Below, one piece after another: positions 1 to 46,294 of a DNA stretch of 46,294 nucleotides. The stretch lies in the IMG/VR virus record IMGVR_UViG_3300045988_155993; one strand, written 5' to 3'. The position numbers and the translations under genes are program-made. Each line of letters opens with the position of its first letter. Positions within the stretch are counted from its first letter, which is position 1. The notes under the pieces are model-generated. The model saw only the letters and a list, made by a program, of their open reading frames with translations, was not told where the DNA came from and made no database searches. The stretch is from a virus.

Positions 1-55
1 CAAAAAGCTTTAGGAGATAAAAGGAAAGAATTCTCTTTATTTATTTGCCATTCAG
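1..55. repeat. Terminal direct repeat; identical to 46240..46294, consistent with overlap of a circular or circularly permuted assembly
   Basis: Exact 55-nt identity between the two window ends. The reading frame of the capsid gene is continuous across the junction. Confidence 0.9.
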
Positions 56-17174: not shown

Positions 17175-18283
17175 TTAATTGTATAAGCTTGATGTGTTGA
17201 AATTAGCTGTTTTTTGTTGATCCAGTTCGGTGTAAATATCTGCTGTTGTTTGATAGCTCGAATGTCCTGCAAGGGATTGAGCAACCTTAATATCAACACC
17301 TTTGTTATAAAGTTGAGTTATAAACATATGTCTTAACATATGATAGTGAAATGGTATTCCTAATTTTTCAGAAGTACGATTAAGAGACTTACGAATTTTT
17401 TGAGATTTTACATAATTCATATCTCTACCAAAAATAACATATTCACTTTCAGGGTACTTCCTAAAATGATTTTCTAAAATATCATGTAGCTCATTTGAAA
17501 TAGGGAGTTCACGATAACTTGATTCTGATTTCAAAGTTGTTATTTTTGTTACTCCTCCAATTGTTTGAATTTGTTTATTGATTGACATTACATTGTTCAC
17601 TAAATCTATATCTTCTCTCTTTAAAGCTATACATTCACTTATTCTTATGCCCGTATATAAGCCGATATAGAGCGCAACTATATAATTATCACTTTCAAGT
17701 ACATTGTTTTTTACGGGATGTTTATATCTTTCAATAAACTTATTAAATTCTTCTAGTGTAATAGTTTTTTTCTTACTTTGTGTCTTAATCCCATTAACCG
17801 TTTTAATTTTACATATGGTTTTCTTGAAATATAGTTATTGTTATATGCGAAAGTAAAAACTCCGTTGATGATTTTATAAATACCTTCAATTGTTTGTTTT
17901 GTGTTGACTTTAGCTAATTCGTTCAATGTATTTTGAATATATTCGTAATCAATCTTTGCAATATCACATTTCCCTATAGTATCTTTCAAATGTTTGTTAT
18001 AGACGGATTTTCTAACAAATTTAGTAGTTTCTTTTGTAAAAGGATCATTAACAATATATATTTGAAACACATCATCAAACGTGCGCTTTTCGGTTTTCAA
18101 ATGTATATTCTCTTTTAACCTTGTTTTTGTTTCTTCTTCAAATCTTTCGGCATCTACTTTCCTAGCAAAACCGCTTTTAGTTATCCATTTTGTTTTTCCT
18201 GTTATGTGTTCTTTATATTTAATCAAAACTTCATAAACATAGCCATTTTTGGCTTTTTTAGACTCTCTTTTTCTTATTGACAT
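17175..18283 (-). pseudogene. int: Tyrosine integrase split by a frameshift in an A7 tract (an A8 tract would give one ~368-aa ORF)
   Basis: The N-terminal ORF (17753..18283) and the C-terminal catalytic ORF (17175..17600, with HxxR and the nucleophile Tyr in ...TADIYTELDQ) differ in frame by one base. A T7 run on the plus strand at 17764-17770 lies at the junction, and hand translation with +1 A restores the middle segment (...ISECIALKREDIDL...). Confidence 0.75.
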
Positions 18284-28075: not shown

Positions 28076-28792
28076 ATGGCGATTAGAAAAGAAACCTCAA
28101 AGGGGTATACGGTTATCAACAACCACCTTTTGAAGAATACAGATTTATCTTTGAAGGCTAAAGGATTGTTATGCTTGATGTTCTCATTGCCTGAAAACTG
28201 GAACTTTTCAACAATGGGACTTACTTCAATTGTGAAAGATGGAAAAACATCTGTATGTTCAACATTGAAGGAACTAGAAGAAAATAGGTATTTAATCAGA
28301 ACACCTATAAGAAATGATAAGGGATCGTTTATTGATTGGGAATACCGCATTTTTGAGGTGCCCTATGACCCTTCTGCTGAAGAACTAGATGCTAGTTACC
28401 CACATGCTGAAAATCAACATCTGAACAATCGACCACAATTAAATACTAATAAATCAATTAAAGATAAATTAAATACTAATATATATAAGAAAGAAAGTAA
28501 AAAGAAAGAATTTGAGGATATTTTAAGCAAGATTGAGGATGAAGATATCGTGAATGCTTTGGGTGAGTTTATTGAAATGCGTAAGACCGTTAAGAAACCT
28601 CTTACTGCTCATGCATTGGATCTAAACATCAAACACCTATTTGAGCTTTCAAACGATAAAACAACCATGATTGCGATTATCGAACAAAGCGTTATGCACA
28701 ACTGGTTGACATTCTATGCTTTGAAAGAACAAGATACATCATCTAACAAAAAACCTCAACAATCTATGTATCCTAATGATTTTGCTTTCTAA
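28076..28792 (+). CDS. Replisome organiser / replication initiator (N-terminal phage_rep_org domain, DnaD-like C-terminus)
   Basis: N-terminal YTVINNHLLKNTDLSLKAKGLLCLMFSLPENWNFS and a C-terminal DnaD-like helical segment. Confidence 0.6.
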   Translation: MAIRKETSKGYTVINNHLLKNTDLSLKAKGLLCLMFSLPENWNFSTMGLTSIVKDGKTSVCSTLKELEENRYLIRTPIRNDKGSFIDWEYRIFEVPYDPSAEELDASYPHAENQHLNNRPQLNTNKSIKDKLNTNIYKKESKKKEFEDILSKIEDEDIVNALGEFIEMRKTVKKPLTAHALDLNIKHLFELSNDKTTMIAIIEQSVMHNWLTFYALKEQDTSSNKKPQQSMYPNDFAF

Positions 28793-28804
28793 AGAGGAGT
28801 TCAA

Positions 28805-29356
28805 ATGAAATTAGAAGAAACAAGACAAATATTAAGCATTTTAAAAACAAACTATCCTCAAAGTTTTAGAAATTGGGATATTAAACAATCGCAGGACTTC
28901 TTAAACCTTTGGGCAGAAGCTTTCAAAGATGAACCAGTAGGGCTAGTTGCTACTGCTGTCAAGTCAATTATTTATTCTGATACAAGAGAATTTGCTCCTA
29001 ATATCGGTCAAGTAAAAGCCATGATCCATAAGATTTCAACAGTTAACAACTCCTTAACAGAACAAGAAGCATGGAACTTGGTTTATAAGGCACTTGAAAA
29101 TAGTGGTTATCATGCGGAGGAGGAGTTCAAAAAGCTTCCTCCTACTGTTCAAAAAATTGTAGGAAGTCCTTCTGTTTTAAAAGAATGGTGCATGATGAAC
29201 ATTGACGAGCTTAACTCGGTTGTAGCAAGTAATTTTCAAAGAAGTTATCGTGCAAGAGCTAGACATGAAGAAGAAATGCAGGCATTGCCAAACAGCGTTA
29301 AGGCTGTCCTCGGGAATATGGATCATACAAAAATTGGGTTTAAAGGAGGAAAATAA
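28805..29356 (+). CDS. Helicase loader, G39P-like (loader and inhibitor of phage G40P family)
   Basis: N-terminal pattern ILSILKTNYPQSF...DFLNLWAEAFKDEP resembles SPP1 G39P. Confidence 0.45.
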   Translation: MKLEETRQILSILKTNYPQSFRNWDIKQSQDFLNLWAEAFKDEPVGLVATAVKSIIYSDTREFAPNIGQVKAMIHKISTVNNSLTEQEAWNLVYKALENSGYHAEEEFKKLPPTVQKIVGSPSVLKEWCMMNIDELNSVVASNFQRSYRARARHEEEMQALPNSVKAVLGNMDHTKIGFKGGK

Positions 29357-29357
29357 A

Positions 29358-29534
29358 ATGTACTATATTTTAACAATAATAATTTTAGTTTTAATTGTTG
29401 TTTGCTTGTACTTATACAAATCGTTAAGAAATGTACGAGCTGATTTAGATAGCTATAAGAGAACTTATCTTAATGTTTATGACGACTCTTGTGCATATAG
29501 AAAAAAACAGAGTGATTGTAGAAGGCAATTTTGA
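29358..29534 (+). CDS. Small transmembrane protein
   Basis: MYYILTIIILVLIVVCLYLY followed by a basic tail. Confidence 0.35.
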   Translation: MYYILTIIILVLIVVCLYLYKSLRNVRADLDSYKRTYLNVYDDSCAYRKKQSDCRRQF

Positions 29535-29760
29535 AATAGTCAAAGATTTTATAAGTGTTTCAATAGATGAATTTGAACAATTTAGATATTTTGCAAAACA
29601 CAACTATGTTGCAGGGTGTTTGTTTAAAACGTTCATCAAAGATGGGATTTCTAAAGGATATGAAGAATTAGATAGGGGAGACTCTTATGATTATCCACCA
29701 CATTCAGTTAAAATTCCAAAAGATTTAAGAATAGAAATACTACATGTAAGAAAAAAATAG
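29473..29760 (+). CDS. Hypothetical protein
   Basis: 95-aa ORF whose start overlaps the preceding small ORF. Confidence 0.35.
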   Translation: MFMTTLVHIEKNRVIVEGNFEIVKDFISVSIDEFEQFRYFAKHNYVAGCLFKTFIKDGISKGYEELDRGDSYDYPPHSVKIPKDLRIEILHVRKK

Positions 29761-29772
29761 GAGGTGTAAATT

Positions 29773-30258
29773 ATGATTAAAGTAGAAGAAATCGCTGAAA
29801 AATACAAAGGCTACGAAGTGGACGAGGAGAAACTAAAAGAGTTTCTCACACCACCTAAACCTAAAACAGTATGGGATTTAAAAGAAAGTGATAAATATTG
29901 GTATATTTCAGATTATGGGCAAATTTGTAAAAGTACATGGACTAATTTTGAATGTGAGATTATTAGAAGAGCTATTGGAAATTGTTTCTTAACAAAAAAA
30001 GAAGGCGAATTTGAAGTTGAAAGACGCAAGGTTGAAACTATCTTGTTGAAATACGGTAGAAGAGAGTATAAAAGCAAAGATAATTATTATATGTATTGTG
30101 ATTATTACCAATCACCTTCAATTGAAATTAATTGGTGTGGAAGTGCCCAAAATCAAGGAACTATCTATTATGACACTAAAGAATTATTAGATCAAGCCAT
30201 TGAAGAAGCAGGAGAAGACAATATTAAGAAATATATTTTTGGAGTTGATGCAGGATGA
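29773..30258 (+). CDS. Hypothetical protein
   Basis: 161 aa with RBS AGGAGGTG upstream. Confidence 0.5.
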   Translation: MIKVEEIAEKYKGYEVDEEKLKEFLTPPKPKTVWDLKESDKYWYISDYGQICKSTWTNFECEIIRRAIGNCFLTKKEGEFEVERRKVETILLKYGRREYKSKDNYYMYCDYYQSPSIEINWCGSAQNQGTIYYDTKELLDQAIEEAGEDNIKKYIFGVDAG

Positions 30259-30700
30259 TAAATCAATCACTTTTTACAAGTGAAAAAGATTACTGGGAAA
30301 CACCTCAAGCGTTATTTAATGAACTTGATAGAGAATTTCATTTTACATTAGATCCTTGCTCAACTCATGAAAATGCTAAATGTCAAAAACATTTCACAAT
30401 TGTAGAAAATGGGCTTTTAAAATCTTGGGGGGGGAGACAGTGTTCTGTAACCCGCCTTACGGACGAAACAATACAGGTTTATGGGTTGAAAAATGCTATC
30501 TTGAAGCGCAAAAACCAAATACAACAGTTGTGTTATTAATTCCTGCAAGAACTGATACAAAATGGTTTCACAAATATATTTACAAGAAACATGAAGTTAG
30601 GTTTTTAAAAGGAAGAATAAAGTTTGAATTAGGAGGAGTTGCTAAAAATAGTGCAACTTTTCCTAGTATGCTAGTAATTATGAAAAACAAAAATATATGA
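30255..30700 (+). pseudogene. Phage Dam-type N6-adenine DNA methyltransferase split at a poly-G tract (G8 at 30427-30434; G9 would restore about 148 aa)
   Basis: The upstream ORF carries FTLDPCSTHENAKC. The downstream ORF carries FCNPPYG and ARTDTKWFH...RFLKGRIKF. The frame changes exactly at the GGGGGGGG run. Confidence 0.7.
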
Positions 30701-30729
30701 AAGAATACGTTAAGAAAGGTTAAGAAATC

Positions 30730-31236
30730 ATGAAAATAAGAGAACAATTAAAAGAAATGTTTCAAATACAAAGGGTGTTGAATGAAAATATTTTAGATGA
30801 ATTCGGTGAAGAAGCAATGACCGAAGAAAAATTAGAGTTAGCAATCATTGATGAATTAGGAGAACTAACACATGAACTCAAAGGTGATTGGTGTTGGTGG
30901 AAGAAAACCCAAAAACCTGTTGATAGAAAACGTGTATTAGAGGAATTAGTGGATGTTTACCATTTTGTTATGATAAATGAAATGGAGCGCAGATGTTCAA
31001 GTACAGATGAAGCAATTGATAGTATTTTAAATAAATATAAATTTTCAATTAGTCACTTCAATGAATTAGGGAAAGAAAGACTTGATTGTTTAATTAGCGA
31101 TATTTCAAGTACTTGTGATAAACTCGGGTATTTATTACATTTAACAGAATGTTTGAAATTCTCTTTTGATGAAATCTATCAAGAATATCTCAACAAGAGC
31201 AAAATCAATTATGAAAGGCTTAAAAACGGGTATTGA
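30730..31236 (+). CDS. Dimeric dUTPase-like all-alpha NTP pyrophosphatase (dUTPase_2/MazG-like)
   Basis: Motif ELAIIDELGELTHELKGDWCWWKK...LEELVDVYHFV. Confidence 0.55.
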   Translation: MKIREQLKEMFQIQRVLNENILDEFGEEAMTEEKLELAIIDELGELTHELKGDWCWWKKTQKPVDRKRVLEELVDVYHFVMINEMERRCSSTDEAIDSILNKYKFSISHFNELGKERLDCLISDISSTCDKLGYLLHLTECLKFSFDEIYQEYLNKSKINYERLKNGY

Positions 31237-31451
31237 TTATGGAATCAGAAAAAGCATTGGAACAAGCGGGTTTCTCTAAATTTTATGAGAGTAAGAATGT
31301 GGTTGGTTTTGCATCAATGAGAGACCGACTTAAATTCTATGAAGATACTCAAACGATTTGTCTTTGTGACGAACATTATGAAGTTAGTTTCAGTCCTAAT
31401 ATAATAAAAGCTATTTATCTCTATTGTGAGGAGAAAGGGTGGTTTAAATGA
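31233..31451 (+). CDS. Small hypothetical protein (paralogue of the next gene)
   Basis: 72 aa ending in ...CEEKGWFK. Confidence 0.4.
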   Translation: MIMESEKALEQAGFSKFYESKNVVGFASMRDRLKFYEDTQTICLCDEHYEVSFSPNIIKAIYLYCEEKGWFK

Positions 31452-31702
31452 CAGCACAAGAAATGTTCAAGGAGTTAGGTTTTAGAAAAAATACATCAAT
31501 TTGTTATGGAGTGGATCATATTGTTTATGAAAAAGCAATAGGCAGTGAAGATGATGATTGCGGATTTGATATATTTACAGTTGAATTCAAAGAAGGTATT
31601 TTCACTTACCACAACGCATGGAATAGCGCAATTAAAACGGATAAAGCAATGTTAAAAGCAATCAACCAACAATGTGAGGAATTGGGGTGGTTAGATGAAT
31701 AA
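31448..31702 (+). CDS. Small hypothetical protein (paralogue of the previous gene)
   Basis: 84 aa ending in ...CEELGWLDE. Confidence 0.4.
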   Translation: MTAQEMFKELGFRKNTSICYGVDHIVYEKAIGSEDDDCGFDIFTVEFKEGIFTYHNAWNSAIKTDKAMLKAINQQCEELGWLDE

Positions 31703-32150
31703 AAGAATACTTGATGTTTGTTGTGGATCAAGAATGTTTTGGTTTGATAAAACTAACAAAGATACCATATATATGGATATTAGAGAATTTGAAGATACTC
31801 TATGTGACGGAAGACATCTTTCGGTAAAGCCTGATGTAATCGGTGATTTTAGAAATATTCCATTTGATGATGAAACATTTAACATGGTTGTATTTGATCC
31901 ACCCCATTTAATCAAGGCGGGAGATAATTCATGGTTGGTAAAAAAATATGGAAAATTATCTAACGCTTGGCCACAAGATATCAAACAAGGATTTGATGAA
32001 TGTATGAGAGTTTTAAAGCCGAATGGTACTCTGATATTTAAGTGGAATGAAGAACAAATTAAATTGAAAGAAATCTTAAATTGTATTAATTACAAACCGC
32101 TTTTTGGGAACAAACGCTCAAAAACACATTGGCTAGTGTTTATGAAGTGA
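31695..32150 (+). CDS. Small class-I SAM-dependent methyltransferase (putative DNA N6-A/N4-C methyltransferase)
   Basis: Motif I-like ILDVCCGSRMFWF and motif IV-like VVFDPPH. Confidence 0.5.
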   Translation: MNKRILDVCCGSRMFWFDKTNKDTIYMDIREFEDTLCDGRHLSVKPDVIGDFRNIPFDDETFNMVVFDPPHLIKAGDNSWLVKKYGKLSNAWPQDIKQGFDECMRVLKPNGTLIFKWNEEQIKLKEILNCINYKPLFGNKRSKTHWLVFMK

Positions 32151-32174
32151 AAAAATGATAGGAGTGAAAAATAG

Positions 32175-32387
32175 ATGAATAAATATGAAAAAGCATTTAA
32201 TCATTTGAGAGAACATGCATCATTTGATACTGTGGATGAAATGATTGATATAAAAGAATTAGTGGAAAAAGCAATACCTAAAAAACCATTATTAGCATTT
32301 GCTGATGGTGTTACTGTTGATGGTTCGATTGTTCGAAGAACAGCATTAGTGTGTCCTTCTTGTCAATCGCTTTTAATAGAAGGATAA
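32175..32387 (+). CDS. Hypothetical protein ending inside a zinc-ribbon motif
   Basis: The ORF ends ...VCPSCQSLLIEG, followed by TAA, then in frame KYCHSCGQKPGG. Confidence 0.4.
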   Translation: MNKYEKAFNHLREHASFDTVDEMIDIKELVEKAIPKKPLLAFADGVTVDGSIVRRTALVCPSCQSLLIEG

Positions 32388-32429
32388 AAATATTGTCATT
32401 CGTGCGGACAAAAACCTGGAGGGTTGAAG

Positions 32430-32897
32430 ATGAAAAACTTTGAAAAATATGAAAAAGAGATTAAAGAGATAGTGAATCAAAATAAGCCTATTGCGGTTGT
32501 AAATAATAAACCATGTGTTTGTGAAGGTAAGTGTACTGGATGCAAATTTGATAAAAGTAAAGGCGATATGAGAGGTTGCATAGTAAAAGCTTTTGAATGG
32601 CTCTATGAAGAATATAAAGAACCTATCAAGCTATCTCGTTTAGAATTTGAATTGTTGAAATGTCTTAAAGGTGAAAAACTTGAATATCTAGCAAGGGATA
32701 AATGTAAAGTTTATGTTCATGCATATGGCACTAAACCTCAAAAAGGAAATCTCGGTTGGTTTACGGAGATAAGAGATTGCTGTTGTATGTCTTTATTTAG
32801 TAATTGTTTTAAATTCATCAAATGGGAAGATGAAGAACCTTACAAAATCCAAGATATTTTAGATAATTGCGAGGTGGTTGAGGATGGAGAAGCCTAG
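32430..32897 (+). CDS. Cysteine-rich hypothetical protein
   Basis: ATG preceded by GGAGGG. CVCEGKCTGC and DCCC motifs. Confidence 0.5.
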   Translation: MKNFEKYEKEIKEIVNQNKPIAVVNNKPCVCEGKCTGCKFDKSKGDMRGCIVKAFEWLYEEYKEPIKLSRLEFELLKCLKGEKLEYLARDKCKVYVHAYGTKPQKGNLGWFTEIRDCCCMSLFSNCFKFIKWEDEEPYKIQDILDNCEVVEDGEA

Positions 32898-33138
32898 TAG
32901 AGAAGAATATACAGATTTAAGCACTCAAATGGGTGGTGATGCAGTCCGTTTGTATGTAGAAGCTCTAGAAGCATATTGCAAGCAATTAGAAAAAGCTTAT
33001 GAAGACGTAAGAAAAGGTTTAGATAATGCTTGCAACAAACTGGAAGGTTTATATCTTTGCATTGATGTTTTAACAGATAAAGAATCTAAAAAAGATAAAG
33101 AATACTGGAAAAAGAAGGTGAATGAAGATGTACATTAA
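32884..33138 (+). CDS. Hypothetical protein
   Basis: Internal ATG (MEKPSREEY) within the 32878 ORF. Confidence 0.4.
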   Translation: MEKPSREEYTDLSTQMGGDAVRLYVEALEAYCKQLEKAYEDVRKGLDNACNKLEGLYLCIDVLTDKESKKDKEYWKKKVNEDVH

Positions 33139-33240
33139 TCCATTTGTAGCAGGAATCATCGTTACATTAACAGCAGAAACGTTGATTGTTATTTCAACTC
33201 TTACTTTAATAGCTGTTAAAGAATATAGGAGTGCAAAAAA

Positions 33241-33447
33241 ATGAAATTAAACGAGTATCTAGAAAAACACCAAAATGATATGATTTCTTTATTTGATGCA
33301 GATGCAAATTTAATTGTTAGGTTAAGAGGAGAAAATATGTATAAAAGCATTGGTGATAAGTTGGTTGATGCAGAGATAACAAAATATTATAGAAATCCTC
33401 TTGATAGAGGACGAAAAGTATTTATAAACGTAAGATTAGGAGTTTAA
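33241..33447 (+). CDS. Hypothetical protein
   Basis: 68-aa ORF. Confidence 0.4.
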   Translation: MKLNEYLEKHQNDMISLFDADANLIVRLRGENMYKSIGDKLVDAEITKYYRNPLDRGRKVFINVRLGV

Positions 33448-33448
33448 T

Positions 33449-33694
33449 ATGGAACAAACATATAGTATTTTACAAAGACAAGTGAATTTACAAACTGGGA
33501 AAGTTGCTGTTAGAGTTTGTAAAAAAGGAACAGAAGAAGAGCTTTCTAAAGATGTAAACTATTGCAAATTAAGAAGCATCTTCAATCAAGACTTAACTTA
33601 CTATCTTGTTAAGCAAGAGAATGAAAAAGAAGTTATTAAAATCTTAAAAAAGAAGGTTGTCGAAGAAGATGATCGTTATGTAGAAATTAAATAG
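33449..33694 (+). CDS. Hypothetical protein
   Basis: 81-aa ORF. Confidence 0.4.
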   Translation: MEQTYSILQRQVNLQTGKVAVRVCKKGTEEELSKDVNYCKLRSIFNQDLTYYLVKQENEKEVIKILKKKVVEEDDRYVEIK

Positions 33695-33711
33695 AGGAGG
33701 TTAAAAATCAA

Positions 33712-34002
33712 ATGGTACACGTTATGGATAACTACTACTTTGATGCTGATAGCAACTGTTATACAGCTCTCGAAGATACTTTGAAGAAAGATAAAGACGA
33801 TAAACCAGTTTATCGAACAATCGGCTATTATCCTTCGGCTAAAGATGCTGTAAAAGGAATTGCTAAATACATTCATAAGAAACTTGCAGGGAATGAAGAA
33901 AGCTCAAGCATTGAATTAAGCGAATATATCAAAAAATGTGAAGATGTAAGCATCAAGCTACAAACAACACTTGACGATATTTTCAAAGCTGTTGACTTCT
34001 AA
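33712..34002 (+). CDS. Hypothetical protein
   Basis: 96 aa with RBS GGAGG upstream. Confidence 0.45.
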   Translation: MVHVMDNYYFDADSNCYTALEDTLKKDKDDKPVYRTIGYYPSAKDAVKGIAKYIHKKLAGNEESSSIELSEYIKKCEDVSIKLQTTLDDIFKAVDF

Positions 34003-34028
34003 ACAGATGAAAGGTAGGACATAGGGTC

Positions 34029-34634
34029 ATGAACACATTGGAGTGGATTGAAGCAAAAACGAGTCTTATTGAAATTCAGCTAGAGGATTTCTTTAAAATC
34101 AACCAACTAAAATTGCATATGATCAATACATATCCCATCATCTGCAATTATTTGAGTGTCAACAACGACATTGAAGGATTAGAGCAACGCTCTTTTGAAG
34201 ATTATAACGTTTTATATCAAGCGTTTATGAAGTATCAAAACATCATTTCTAAAATCAATCTAGAAGTCGTGTTTGTAGCATCCAAAGAAAATTTCTGTTT
34301 CTTCATGGGATGGACTGCAAAATTCTATGATGATATGCTAAATAGTACAAATGATGATATTAGAGCAATGATGGAAATGATTAATGACTATATCATTGAC
34401 TCTCAACTTTCAGCAGGTCAGCGAGGATTTATCAAGGCGAACCTTACAAAGTTCAGAGCACAAACCGCAGGAGAACATGGTCATTCGTTGATAACTCAAA
34501 AAGAACAATTAAGCTCAGGTGGAAAGAGCACAGAGCTTAAATCCAAAGAACAGTTGATAGCTGAACTAGAGGGAATGGGACTTAACAAACAGTTAGTAGG
34601 TAACACATACCCTCACGGTAAAAAATCAAAATAA
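34029..34634 (+). CDS. Hypothetical protein (last gene of the plus-strand early block)
   Basis: 201-aa ORF followed by a strong terminator. Confidence 0.45.
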   Translation: MNTLEWIEAKTSLIEIQLEDFFKINQLKLHMINTYPIICNYLSVNNDIEGLEQRSFEDYNVLYQAFMKYQNIISKINLEVVFVASKENFCFFMGWTAKFYDDMLNSTNDDIRAMMEMINDYIIDSQLSAGQRGFIKANLTKFRAQTAGEHGHSLITQKEQLSSGGKSTELKSKEQLIAELEGMGLNKQLVGNTYPHGKKSK

Positions 34635-35901: not shown

Positions 35902-35940
35902 CAAAAAAGGGGACTCCTTAATTTTGAGGAGTCCTTTTCT
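35902..35940. terminator. Bidirectional terminator downstream of the serine recombinase gene
   Basis: GGACTCCT ... AGGAGTCC (8 bp, perfect) with a T-run on both strands. Confidence 0.6.
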
Positions 35941-36554
35941 TATGCATATTCCTTCTTGATCTTGCAAACATATTGTCTAGATTTACCCGTTTTAAATTGA
36001 ATTTCTCTCGTTGAATAACCTTCTTTTGCCATTTTAACAATTAGATCAATAACTTCTTGCGCTTTTTTTGTTGCAGGTCTACCAAGTTTGACACCTTGTT
36101 CTTTTTTAGCTTGAAGCGCATCTTTTGTTCTTCGTGAAAGTTTTTCTCTTTCATTTTGAGATGCAAAGCAATAAGTATCTAAAACGATTGATTTAATTAA
36201 CTTGATATTTAAGTCAACTGTTCCGTCTTCTTTGTAGATTGACATAGATAGAGCAGGGACTTCTAAAATAATGACATTAACAACGTTATCTTCAAACCAT
36301 TTGTATTCTCTTTTAATTCCGTCCCAATCACGACCTAATCTATCAACTTCTGTAAAGTACACGGTATCTTCTCCACTTTTGACAGTGTCTTTTAATTTTG
36401 AAAATTCGGGTCTATCAAAAGTCTTACCAGTAATGACATCAATAAACCATCCGTCAATATGAATGTTATTCTTTTCAAAATAATCTTTCAAAATGTACTC
36501 TTGTCTATCTGTATGTTGTTTGTTTGTACTAATTCTCATGTATGCGTAATTCAT
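35940..36554 (-). CDS. Small serine recombinase (resolvase/invertase family) with C-terminal HTH
   Basis: N-terminal YAYMRISTNKQ serine motif plus RLGRD, and a C-terminal HTH (GYSTREIQFKTGKSRQYV). Confidence 0.75.
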   Translation of the reverse strand: MNYAYMRISTNKQHTDRQEYILKDYFEKNNIHIDGWFIDVITGKTFDRPEFSKLKDTVKSGEDTVYFTEVDRLGRDWDGIKREYKWFEDNVVNVIILEVPALSMSIYKEDGTVDLNIKLIKSIVLDTYCFASQNEREKLSRRTKDALQAKKEQGVKLGRPATKKAQEVIDLIVKMAKEGYSTREIQFKTGKSRQYVCKIKKEYA

Positions 36555-36987: not shown

Positions 36988-37223
36988 CCCCTCGCCCCCC
37001 TAAAACAGATGCGTACCTAGACATACCCCCATACACACCCCCTTAGAGTTAATTCTTTGTTCTCTTTATATATAACATAGTCATTTTATAAAGTCAATAG
37101 AAAATGAATAAAAATGATAATTTAATATTTACAAGTACATTTAAGAAATTTACAAAAAAGTATTGAAAAGTAAATAACGTGGGTGTACTATATGGGTGTC
37201 AAGAGGAACGGAGGACAAGAGAA

Positions 37224-45714: not shown

Positions 45715-46294
45715 ATGCCAAGAGAAGGTGTTTTTAACGGTGTAGTATTTGATCCCAATATTTTTGCGGGATATATGCAAGAACAATCATGTTTAAATAC
45801 AGCGATTATTCAATCAGGTATTTTAGTAGAAGACCCAATTATTAAAAAAGCGTTAGGGAGTGACGGGAATGTAGGAACAACTCCATTCTTCTTACCAGTG
45901 GATGAAGAAGGAGACGCTTTAAACTATGACGGTAAAACAAACAACGTCCCTAGTGAATTAAAAAATAGTAAGCAAATGTTTATGGCTATTGGTAGACAAA
46001 AAGCTTGGAAAGAAAATACATTTGTTCGCTATTTAAGTGGTAAATCACCATTACAAAATTTAGCAGATCGTTTAGTTGTACCTTATTGGACTTTCCAATG
46101 GCAACAAGATTTATTAGCAGTCATTAAAGGTGTTTTAGGAGTAACTGAAATGAAATCACATATTACTGATTTATCAGTAGCTAGCGGTTCAATCACAGAT
46201 GCAAATAAAATTTCTTTAGAAACACCTGTAGATGCAGGACAAAAAGCTTTAGGAGATAAAAGGAAAGAATTCTCTTTATTTATTTGCCATTCAG
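45715..46294 (+). CDS. Major capsid protein, N-terminal part (continues at 1..489; total about 337 aa)
   Basis: RBS TAGGAGG upstream. The frame is open to the window end and continuous with frame 1 at position 1. Confidence 0.8.
   Translation, partial: MPREGVFNGVVFDPNIFAGYMQEQSCLNTAIIQSGILVEDPIIKKALGSDGNVGTTPFFLPVDEEGDALNYDGKTNNVPSELKNSKQMFMAIGRQKAWKENTFVRYLSGKSPLQNLADRLVVPYWTFQWQQDLLAVIKGVLGVTEMKSHITDLSVASGSITDANKISLETPVDAGQKALGDKRKEFSLFICHS
46240..46294. repeat. Terminal direct repeat (identical to 1..55)
   Basis: Exact identity with 1..55. Confidence 0.9.

Follow-up and report, generated by a model that had tools for sequence, protein, structure and literature searches.

In a viral genome of 46,294 nucleotides (nt), IMG/VR record IMGVR_UViG_3300045988_155993 (the whole stretch analyzed here, referred to below as the window), the gene for a predicted orphan N6-adenine DNA methyltransferase of the PF05869 'phage Dam' family is split by a run of eight guanines (G8). 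The window, a circular genome that we assign to a temperate phage of the human-gut bacterium Faecalibacillus intestinalis, carries an OFF allele of this gene, and we consider it highly probable that the tract is a real, heritable and hypermutable ON/OFF locus. To the fuller explanation, in which frequent, reversible switching at the tract has a selected function, we assign a probability of about 0.6.

The tract occupies positions 30427-30434 on the plus strand, in the context AAATCTT-GGGGGGGG-AGACAG (that is, AAATCTT GGGGGGGG AGACAGTGTTCTGTAACCCGCCTTACGGA), where it splits the methyltransferase open reading frame (ORF) five codons upstream of the NPPY catalytic motif. The window has a guanine-cytosine (GC) content of 32.7% and contains no other run of G or C longer than six; the next G run has five bases, the longest C run has six, and G runs of eight or more are expected about 0.06 times from the base composition. 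The tract is real, lies at these coordinates and is far above chance expectation. With nine guanines it is in frame and spells W58-G59-G60-E61 as TGG GGG GGG GAG. In the window as a whole, GGG accounts for 10% of glycine codons and GAG for 20% of glutamate codons, and the GGG-GGG pair is used in none of the 32 other Gly-Gly pairs. Tract lengths of 9, 6 and 12 preserve the frame and are ON, whereas 7, 8, 10 and 11 break it and are OFF. The elements of the gene, with lengths in amino acids (aa), are arranged as follows.

30255..30434, plus strand: 5' part of the methyltransferase gene, frame 0, codons M1 to G60, with the G tract at its end; its first 60 residues equal those of the intact protein P0177
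30342..30359, plus strand: conserved N-terminal motif F30-T-L-D-P-C35, defined from an alignment of 46 homologs and present only in the ORF1 product
30427..30434, plus strand: G8 homopolymer, very probably hypermutable; at length nine it encodes W58(GG)-G59-G60-(G of E61), at eight it is out of frame
30434..30700, plus strand: 3' part of the gene, frame 2, E61 to I148 plus the stop codon, placed from the ORFs, the Pfam match and P0177
30449..30460, plus strand: N66-P67-P68-Y69, catalytic motif IV of N6-adenine methyltransferases, five codons downstream of the tract
30255..30539, plus strand: ORF1 as read in the G8 allele, 94 aa, frame 0; 60 native residues and a 34-residue out-of-frame tail, without NPPY
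30380..30700, plus strand: ORF2 as read, 106 aa, frame 2; native only in its last ~88-90 residues, the leading residues up to the tract being out of frame

The initial annotation had described the two ORFs as halves of one phage Dam-family methyltransferase, had placed the change of frame inside the G8 run, had stated that a ninth G would restore an ORF of about 148 aa, and had called such a run highly unusual in a genome that looked AT-rich; our analysis bears out all of these points. ORF1 lies in frame 0 and ORF2 in frame 2, the two overlap across the tract, and one added G produces a single ORF of 148 aa. The repaired protein is identical to P0177 (MCB7554092.1, from 'bacterium TM223') and matches Pfam PF05869 (Dam) in one stretch covering profile positions 6-146 of 169, with an E value of 2.7e-32 and 112.2 bits against a cutoff of 28.1. 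The precomputed PF05869 assignment extends to all 120 listed homologs. Across the 46 aligned homologs NPPY (N66-Y69) and W58 are invariant, as are F30 and D33 of the N-terminal motif, with T31, L32 and P34 nearly so. An AlphaFold model built on this alignment reached a predicted local distance difference test score (pLDDT) of 85.9 and a predicted template modeling score (pTM) of 0.83, and its top Foldseek matches were N6-adenosine methyltransferases (PCIF1, TMq 0.72, E 1e-5), with Escherichia coli Dam as a weaker match (E 8e-4); a search of the PDB with the methyltransferase sequence alone gave no meaningful match. As the frame is lost at the tract, after 60 native residues and with 34 out-of-frame residues to follow, the G8 allele is predicted to yield only a 94-aa fragment without the catalytic loop. 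Both fragments occur elsewhere: the ORF1 product is NCBI entry WP_256187085.1 (F. intestinalis), and the ORF2 product is identical to P0117, which is present in two other assemblies.

A search of 5.8 billion proteins for relatives of the methyltransferase returned three kinds of close relative, namely an intact 148-aa protein (97% identity), a 147-aa clade (86% identity), and fragments identical to the ORF2 product. The encoding DNA was recovered by exact protein look-up and by two routes that are independent of the tract, one through an identical upstream neighbor protein and the other through a DNA pattern confined to the flanks. At the DNA level the following tract lengths were read, with contigs given by our own numbering.

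G6: L005-9
G7: L039, L041-43
G8: the window (L018), L003, L004, L019, L021, L024, L040
G9: L002, L020, L052, L010-17
G10: L044-49
G11: L050
T6G8: L038

The proteins of cluster members imply the same lengths through their junctions, on at least nine haplotypes, with WGGRQCS corresponding to G8 (on nine haplotypes), WGGGRQCS to G11 and WGE to G6, and with NRGGETVF and NRGGGETVF corresponding to G7 and G10 in the 86% clade. By counts of the listed contigs, roughly a third to a half of the copies are out of frame. The initial annotation had offered the locus as a candidate phase-variable switch and had named, among what would refute it, the lack of a G tract in homologs from related phages; every relative at 86-97% aa identity has the tract, its length ranging from 6 to 11, in and out of frame and on identical haplotypes, and the candidate stands.

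Two allele groups have further peculiarities around the tract. Contig L038 (PPYE01075934.1) and proteins P0122, P0127, P0128, P0141 and P0189 form one allele family in which TCTTGGGG is replaced by TCTTTTTTGGGG, so that TCTTGG becomes TCTTTTTTGG with four extra Ts; the six Ts are followed by G7, G8 or G10, the otherwise invariant W58 becomes Phe-Leu, and T6G8 is in frame while T6G7 and T6G10 are out of frame. The G6 contigs (L005-L009, Logan contigs of a clade at 93% aa identity) have the in-frame junction WGE, but unrelated sequence replaces the last third of the gene; the ORF ends in TKWFL and a stop codon (105 aa), and the small genes after it are different ones. The arrangement resembles a breakpoint of mosaic recombination within the methyltransferase gene.

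The closest annotated phage homologs have 65% identity, and distant homologs (at most 65% identity) have mixed codons at the site, with WGGE in 6 of the 11 examined and G runs no longer than seven. We therefore ruled out the tract as a general feature of PF05869 proteins. Among GTDB representative genomes only relatives at 65% identity or below were found, which gave no host and tract information limited to codon comparisons. A megablast of positions 30100-30900 against a phage collection gave no match, and an exact-pattern scan of IMG/VR viral contigs returned 0 matches.

Genes that are otherwise identical indicate that the length variation is real and specific to the tract. When the tract is masked, identical 415-nt gene haplotypes differ in its length, hap0 occurring six times with G8 and twice with G9, and hap4 eight times with G9 and five times with G10. 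Similarly, a contig from an F. intestinalis genome (L019, G8) and a contig from SRR18498134 (L020, G9) show 0 mismatches over 5,203 nt except for one G. G8 is also found on a second gene haplotype (L004), whose nearest neighbor is a G9 contig (L002), and on flanks differing by 3-7%. It recurs in at least seven independent assemblies from different pipelines, including the NCBI genome of F. intestinalis. As a control, runs of A6-A8 within 1.4 kb of the tract were essentially invariant in the same contigs. Furthermore, the lengths are lineage-specific, with hap0 tending to G8, hap4 to G10 and a KDW sub-clade to G7 (four times), which indicates heritable alleles and is unlike the pattern of random miscalls.

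The OFF alleles are otherwise whole. Every fully covered OFF allele gives an uninterrupted ORF of 147 or 148 codons once its tract is set to nine, and a second lesion was seen in none of more than 17 OFF contigs, which represent at least seven haplotypes. Between the two clades synonymous divergence (dS) is ~1.0 and the ratio of nonsynonymous to synonymous divergence (dN/dS) ~0.10, and hence the enzyme is under purifying selection. Both clades retain GGG GGG GAG, although neighboring synonymous sites have changed. The locus has three features of a repeat-mediated contingency locus: a slippable repeat inside an ORF (G8 here, G9 in frame), repeat polymorphism that toggles the frame on identical backgrounds, and intact OFF alleles of a gene under purifying selection. 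No single sample was found with both ON and OFF states.

These observations enabled us to propose a model for the regulation of the methyltransferase. Slipped-strand mispairing on the G run during replication would add or remove Gs and so toggle the reading frame, with the result that ON genomes would methylate adenines in phage and host DNA and OFF genomes would not. In ON progeny and lysogens, N6-methyladenine (m6A) marks, possibly at GATC, could protect against methylation-sensitive restriction, while progeny in the OFF state would escape restriction that depends on methylation, or would be spared the cost and regulatory effects of methylating. An alternative benefit might be the modulation of gene expression in the lysogen. 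We infer, beyond this, frequent and reversible switching within a lineage and a tract maintained for bet-hedging. In its most specific form the model is more tentative: it is possible that the poly-G tract was selected for making both methylating and non-methylating progeny, able between them to survive methylation-sensitive (e.g., GATC-cutting) or methylation-dependent restriction, and that in lysogens it constitutes a prophage-borne 'phasevarion', stochastically reprogramming the epigenome of a Gram-positive commensal.

Characterized PF05869 enzymes are Dam-like, and GATC is depleted in the window, with 58 sites against 133 expected (observed/expected 0.43, z -7.9); on these two grounds GATC is our lead for the predicted target. 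Other palindromes are also under-represented in the window, CCGG occurring once against 20.6 expected and CGCG twice against 15.2. The depletion of CCGG, CGCG and GATC suggests restriction avoidance in the host range of the phage.

The serious rival to a selected switch is a mutational hot spot without switch function, in which G9 arose by drift in a dispensable gene and the frameshifted copies are young pseudogenes, so that the variation is real but not adaptive. We regard this as unlikely, yet several observations weigh on its side and against the model proposed here. OFF alleles are the majority in the tract-independent samples (4 distinct G8 vs 1 G9; 5 OFF vs 1 ON), an excess that would also fit the loss of a dispensable gene at a mutational hot spot. 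In the G6 sub-clade the gene is truncated by the loss of its 3' third, and the methyltransferase can thus be dispensable. Stable in-frame alleles with an interrupted tract occur (WRGE and WEGE), and the partial lineage specificity of the lengths implies that switching is not extremely fast. Moreover, the integrase gene of the window is also frameshifted, at a site that is not a homopolymer, so the window genome tolerates lesions. Against the hot spot stand the lack of any second lesion in the OFF contigs, the strong purifying selection on the enzyme, the retention of the tract across a dS of ~1 despite AT-biased codon usage, and the fact that in each of two separate clades one haplotype occurs both ON and OFF. 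Frequent switching with a selected function therefore remains our preferred explanation.

A second possibility, which we consider very improbable, is that recoding lets the G8 allele make the complete enzyme, whether through a programmed -1 ribosomal frameshift (on G_GGG_GGG) or through slippage during transcription. The frame-0 sequence TG[G GGG GGG] formally fits the X_XXY_YYZ pattern, a -1 slip would give exactly WGGETVFCNPPY, and some leaky slippage on long homopolymers is plausible. The formal heptamer is nonetheless all that was found of a programmed -1 site: there is no downstream structure (minimum free energy -14.3 kcal/mol, with shuffled sequences averaging -13.8; z -0.19), close relatives are in frame with G9, and only a shift of the opposite sense would bring the G7 and G10 alleles into frame. 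Heptamers made of G alone are not known to belong to the efficient slippery sites of bacteria. Recoding was accordingly set aside as the main explanation, there being no downstream structure and the lengths in relatives being undecodable by the same shift.

Least probable of all is the sequencing or assembly error that the initial annotation had kept as its alternative, in which the true tract is always G9 and other lengths are miscalled: homopolymers of 8-11 bases are error-prone, coverage is low for several contigs (names of L039-L041 give 2.4-3.0) and any one contig might carry a miscall, but random miscalls would not be expected to produce lineage-specific lengths, to place G8 in so many assemblies from different pipelines, or to leave the A6-A8 runs of the same contigs unchanged. 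Random error and programmed frameshifting are both poorly supported in view of the length variants on identical haplotypes, the stable A/T runs, the intact OFF alleles, and the purifying selection under which GGG-GGG has been kept.

Comparison with known systems places the locus among several precedents while setting it apart from each. The closest is the adenine methylase gene (Bpm) of the Bordetella temperate phages BPP-1, BMP-1 and BIP-1, in which a variable poly-G tract is on record (Liu et al. 2004, as related in PMC4791379 and bioRxiv 10.1101/2025.10.21.683753). In the BPP-1 genome (NC_005357) we located a G8 run at codon 195 of bbp30. Here, too, a poly-G tract lies within the adenine methylase ORF of a temperate phage. 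Bpm, however, is a 251-aa protein of PF01555 (N6_N4_Mtase) with its tract near the C-terminal S-adenosylmethionine (AdoMet) motif, and belongs to the phage of a GC-rich Gram-negative pathogen, whereas the present gene encodes 148 aa of PF05869 with its tract five codons before NPPY, in an AT-rich phage of a gut Bacillota host. For the present locus the evidence is also on the scale of populations, drawn from many metagenomes.

The phasevarions of Haemophilus, Neisseria, Helicobacter and Moraxella depend on phase-variable Type III mod and Type I hsd methyltransferases (PMC6902483, PMC5149525). They share with the present gene a repeat inside a methyltransferase ORF and an N6-adenine methyltransferase turned ON and OFF by frameshift. 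They differ in being chromosomal restriction-modification components of host-adapted Gram-negative pathogens, with regulons shown experimentally and with repeats that are usually tetra- or pentanucleotide or poly-G. The present gene instead encodes a small, phage-borne, predicted orphan methyltransferase, with no restriction-enzyme family recognized among the scanned neighbors; being a 148-aa single-domain PF05869 protein, it does not correspond to the mod subunit of a Type III system or to hsd of a Type I system.

Campylobacter phages of the genus Fletchervirus carry poly-G tracts in their receptor-binding genes as well (Sorensen et al. 2021), and T2 and T4 have contingency loci at homopolymers (bioRxiv 10.1101/2025.10.21.683753). 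These loci have in common with ours hypermutable homopolymers (7-11 G) in phage ORFs and mixed populations as bet-hedging, but they serve adsorption or other functions in virulent phages, whereas the present tract lies in a DNA-modification gene of a temperate phage. Within PF05869, the orphan methyltransferases of the Lactococcus 936 group (Skunavirus), such as Phi17_03, match the present protein in size and motifs and align with it at 65% aa identity across 97% of the protein. Unlike the present gene they contain no homopolymer, the equivalent codons being TGG GGC AAT, and they adjoin the terminase genes of virulent phages. How the ON state might act on the host can be pictured from PamA of Staphylococcus aureus, a prophage Dam-like adenine methyltransferase that alters the phenotype of a Gram-positive lysogen (Ulrich et al. 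2025, as cited in PMC13076061) and that is not reported as phase-variable. A paper on the CJIE1 prophage was rejected as a precedent, as it concerns homopolymers of host genes and not a prophage methylase.

The first and last 55 nt of the window (1-55 and 46240-46294) form an exact terminal direct repeat, which marks the window as a circular assembly whose unit is 46,239 bp long. It contains tail, lysis, integrase/repressor, replication and terminase/portal modules, and is identical over the 5,486 nt compared to contig k127_84051 of ENA ERZ913506, a human gut metagenome. Through the names that NCBI gives for identical proteins, the element is assigned to Faecalibacillus intestinalis (Bacillota, Erysipelotrichales) and to 'bacterium TM223'. 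The methyltransferase sits in the early (replication) module, after a pair of genes for a replication initiator and a helicase loader, and the stop codon of the upstream gene and its own ATG overlap (ATGA, 30255-30258). On its 3' side lie a dUTPase-like gene and then a second putative DNA methyltransferase. Its immediate neighbors are the following.

29773..30258, plus strand: upstream gene, 161 aa, without a family match and translationally coupled to the methyltransferase; it served as the tract-independent anchor for sampling relatives
30730..31236, plus strand: downstream gene for a dimeric dUTPase-like nucleoside triphosphate (NTP) pyrophosphohydrolase, a member of the conserved early/replication module

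No restriction-modification partner family was found among the ten neighboring early-region proteins scanned (28076-34634). The second putative DNA methyltransferase (31695-32150, plus strand), 1 kb downstream, has 151 aa and an FDPPH motif, matches PHROG 954 at E 1e-84, and has the NCBI name 'class I SAM-dependent methyltransferase'. Its 90% cluster also lists members of 91-93 aa, one of which was retrieved (P0225, 93 aa) and has no evident similarity to the 151-aa protein. Upstream of the first methyltransferase, near-identical phages differ in mosaic fashion over the segment 29356-29760, which separates a 183-aa gene from the 161-aa one: the window has ORFs of 58 and 95 aa there, and L019, L020, L021 and L024 have a gene of 133 or 136 aa.

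Two further features lie at a distance from the locus. The tyrosine integrase gene (17175-18283, minus strand) is broken into two ORFs, an N-terminal one of 176 aa (18283..17753) and a C-terminal one of 141 aa (17600..17175), the junction reading AAAACGGTTAATGGG in the window against YVKLKLNGIKTQ in the intact protein, which is not a homopolymer. More than 90 contigs and the two named genomes contain an intact 368-aa integrase, only three contigs have the truncated form, and the circular genome of the window may be integration-defective through this split. The only other clustered runs of at least five G or C in the window form a C-rich patch at 36990-37045 (CCCC, CCCCCC, CCCCC and CCCCC within 55 nt), just 3' of an ORF at 36.9 kb and upstream of a gene starting at 37179, with a resolvase gene (35940..36554, minus strand) further upstream.

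Phase-variable methyltransferases are best known from the chromosomal restriction-modification genes of Gram-negative pathogens, and contingency loci in phages have only recently been noticed. The type of switch described here is already known from other methylase genes; what is new is its presence in another methyltransferase family and in a phage of a Gram-positive gut commensal, together with rich evidence from natural populations. OFF alleles are presently annotated by pipelines as two short 'methyltransferase' fragments. Both states are represented by NCBI genome assemblies, ON by bacterium TM223 (G9) and OFF by F. intestinalis GCA_024460545.1 (G8), and these strains, if cultures are to be had, would allow direct tests of the methylation target, of effects on host range and lysogen expression, and of the speed of switching. 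With dozens of independent metagenomes and two named genome assemblies behind it, the locus provides a clean, naturally replicated example in an abundant phage of a human gut commensal.

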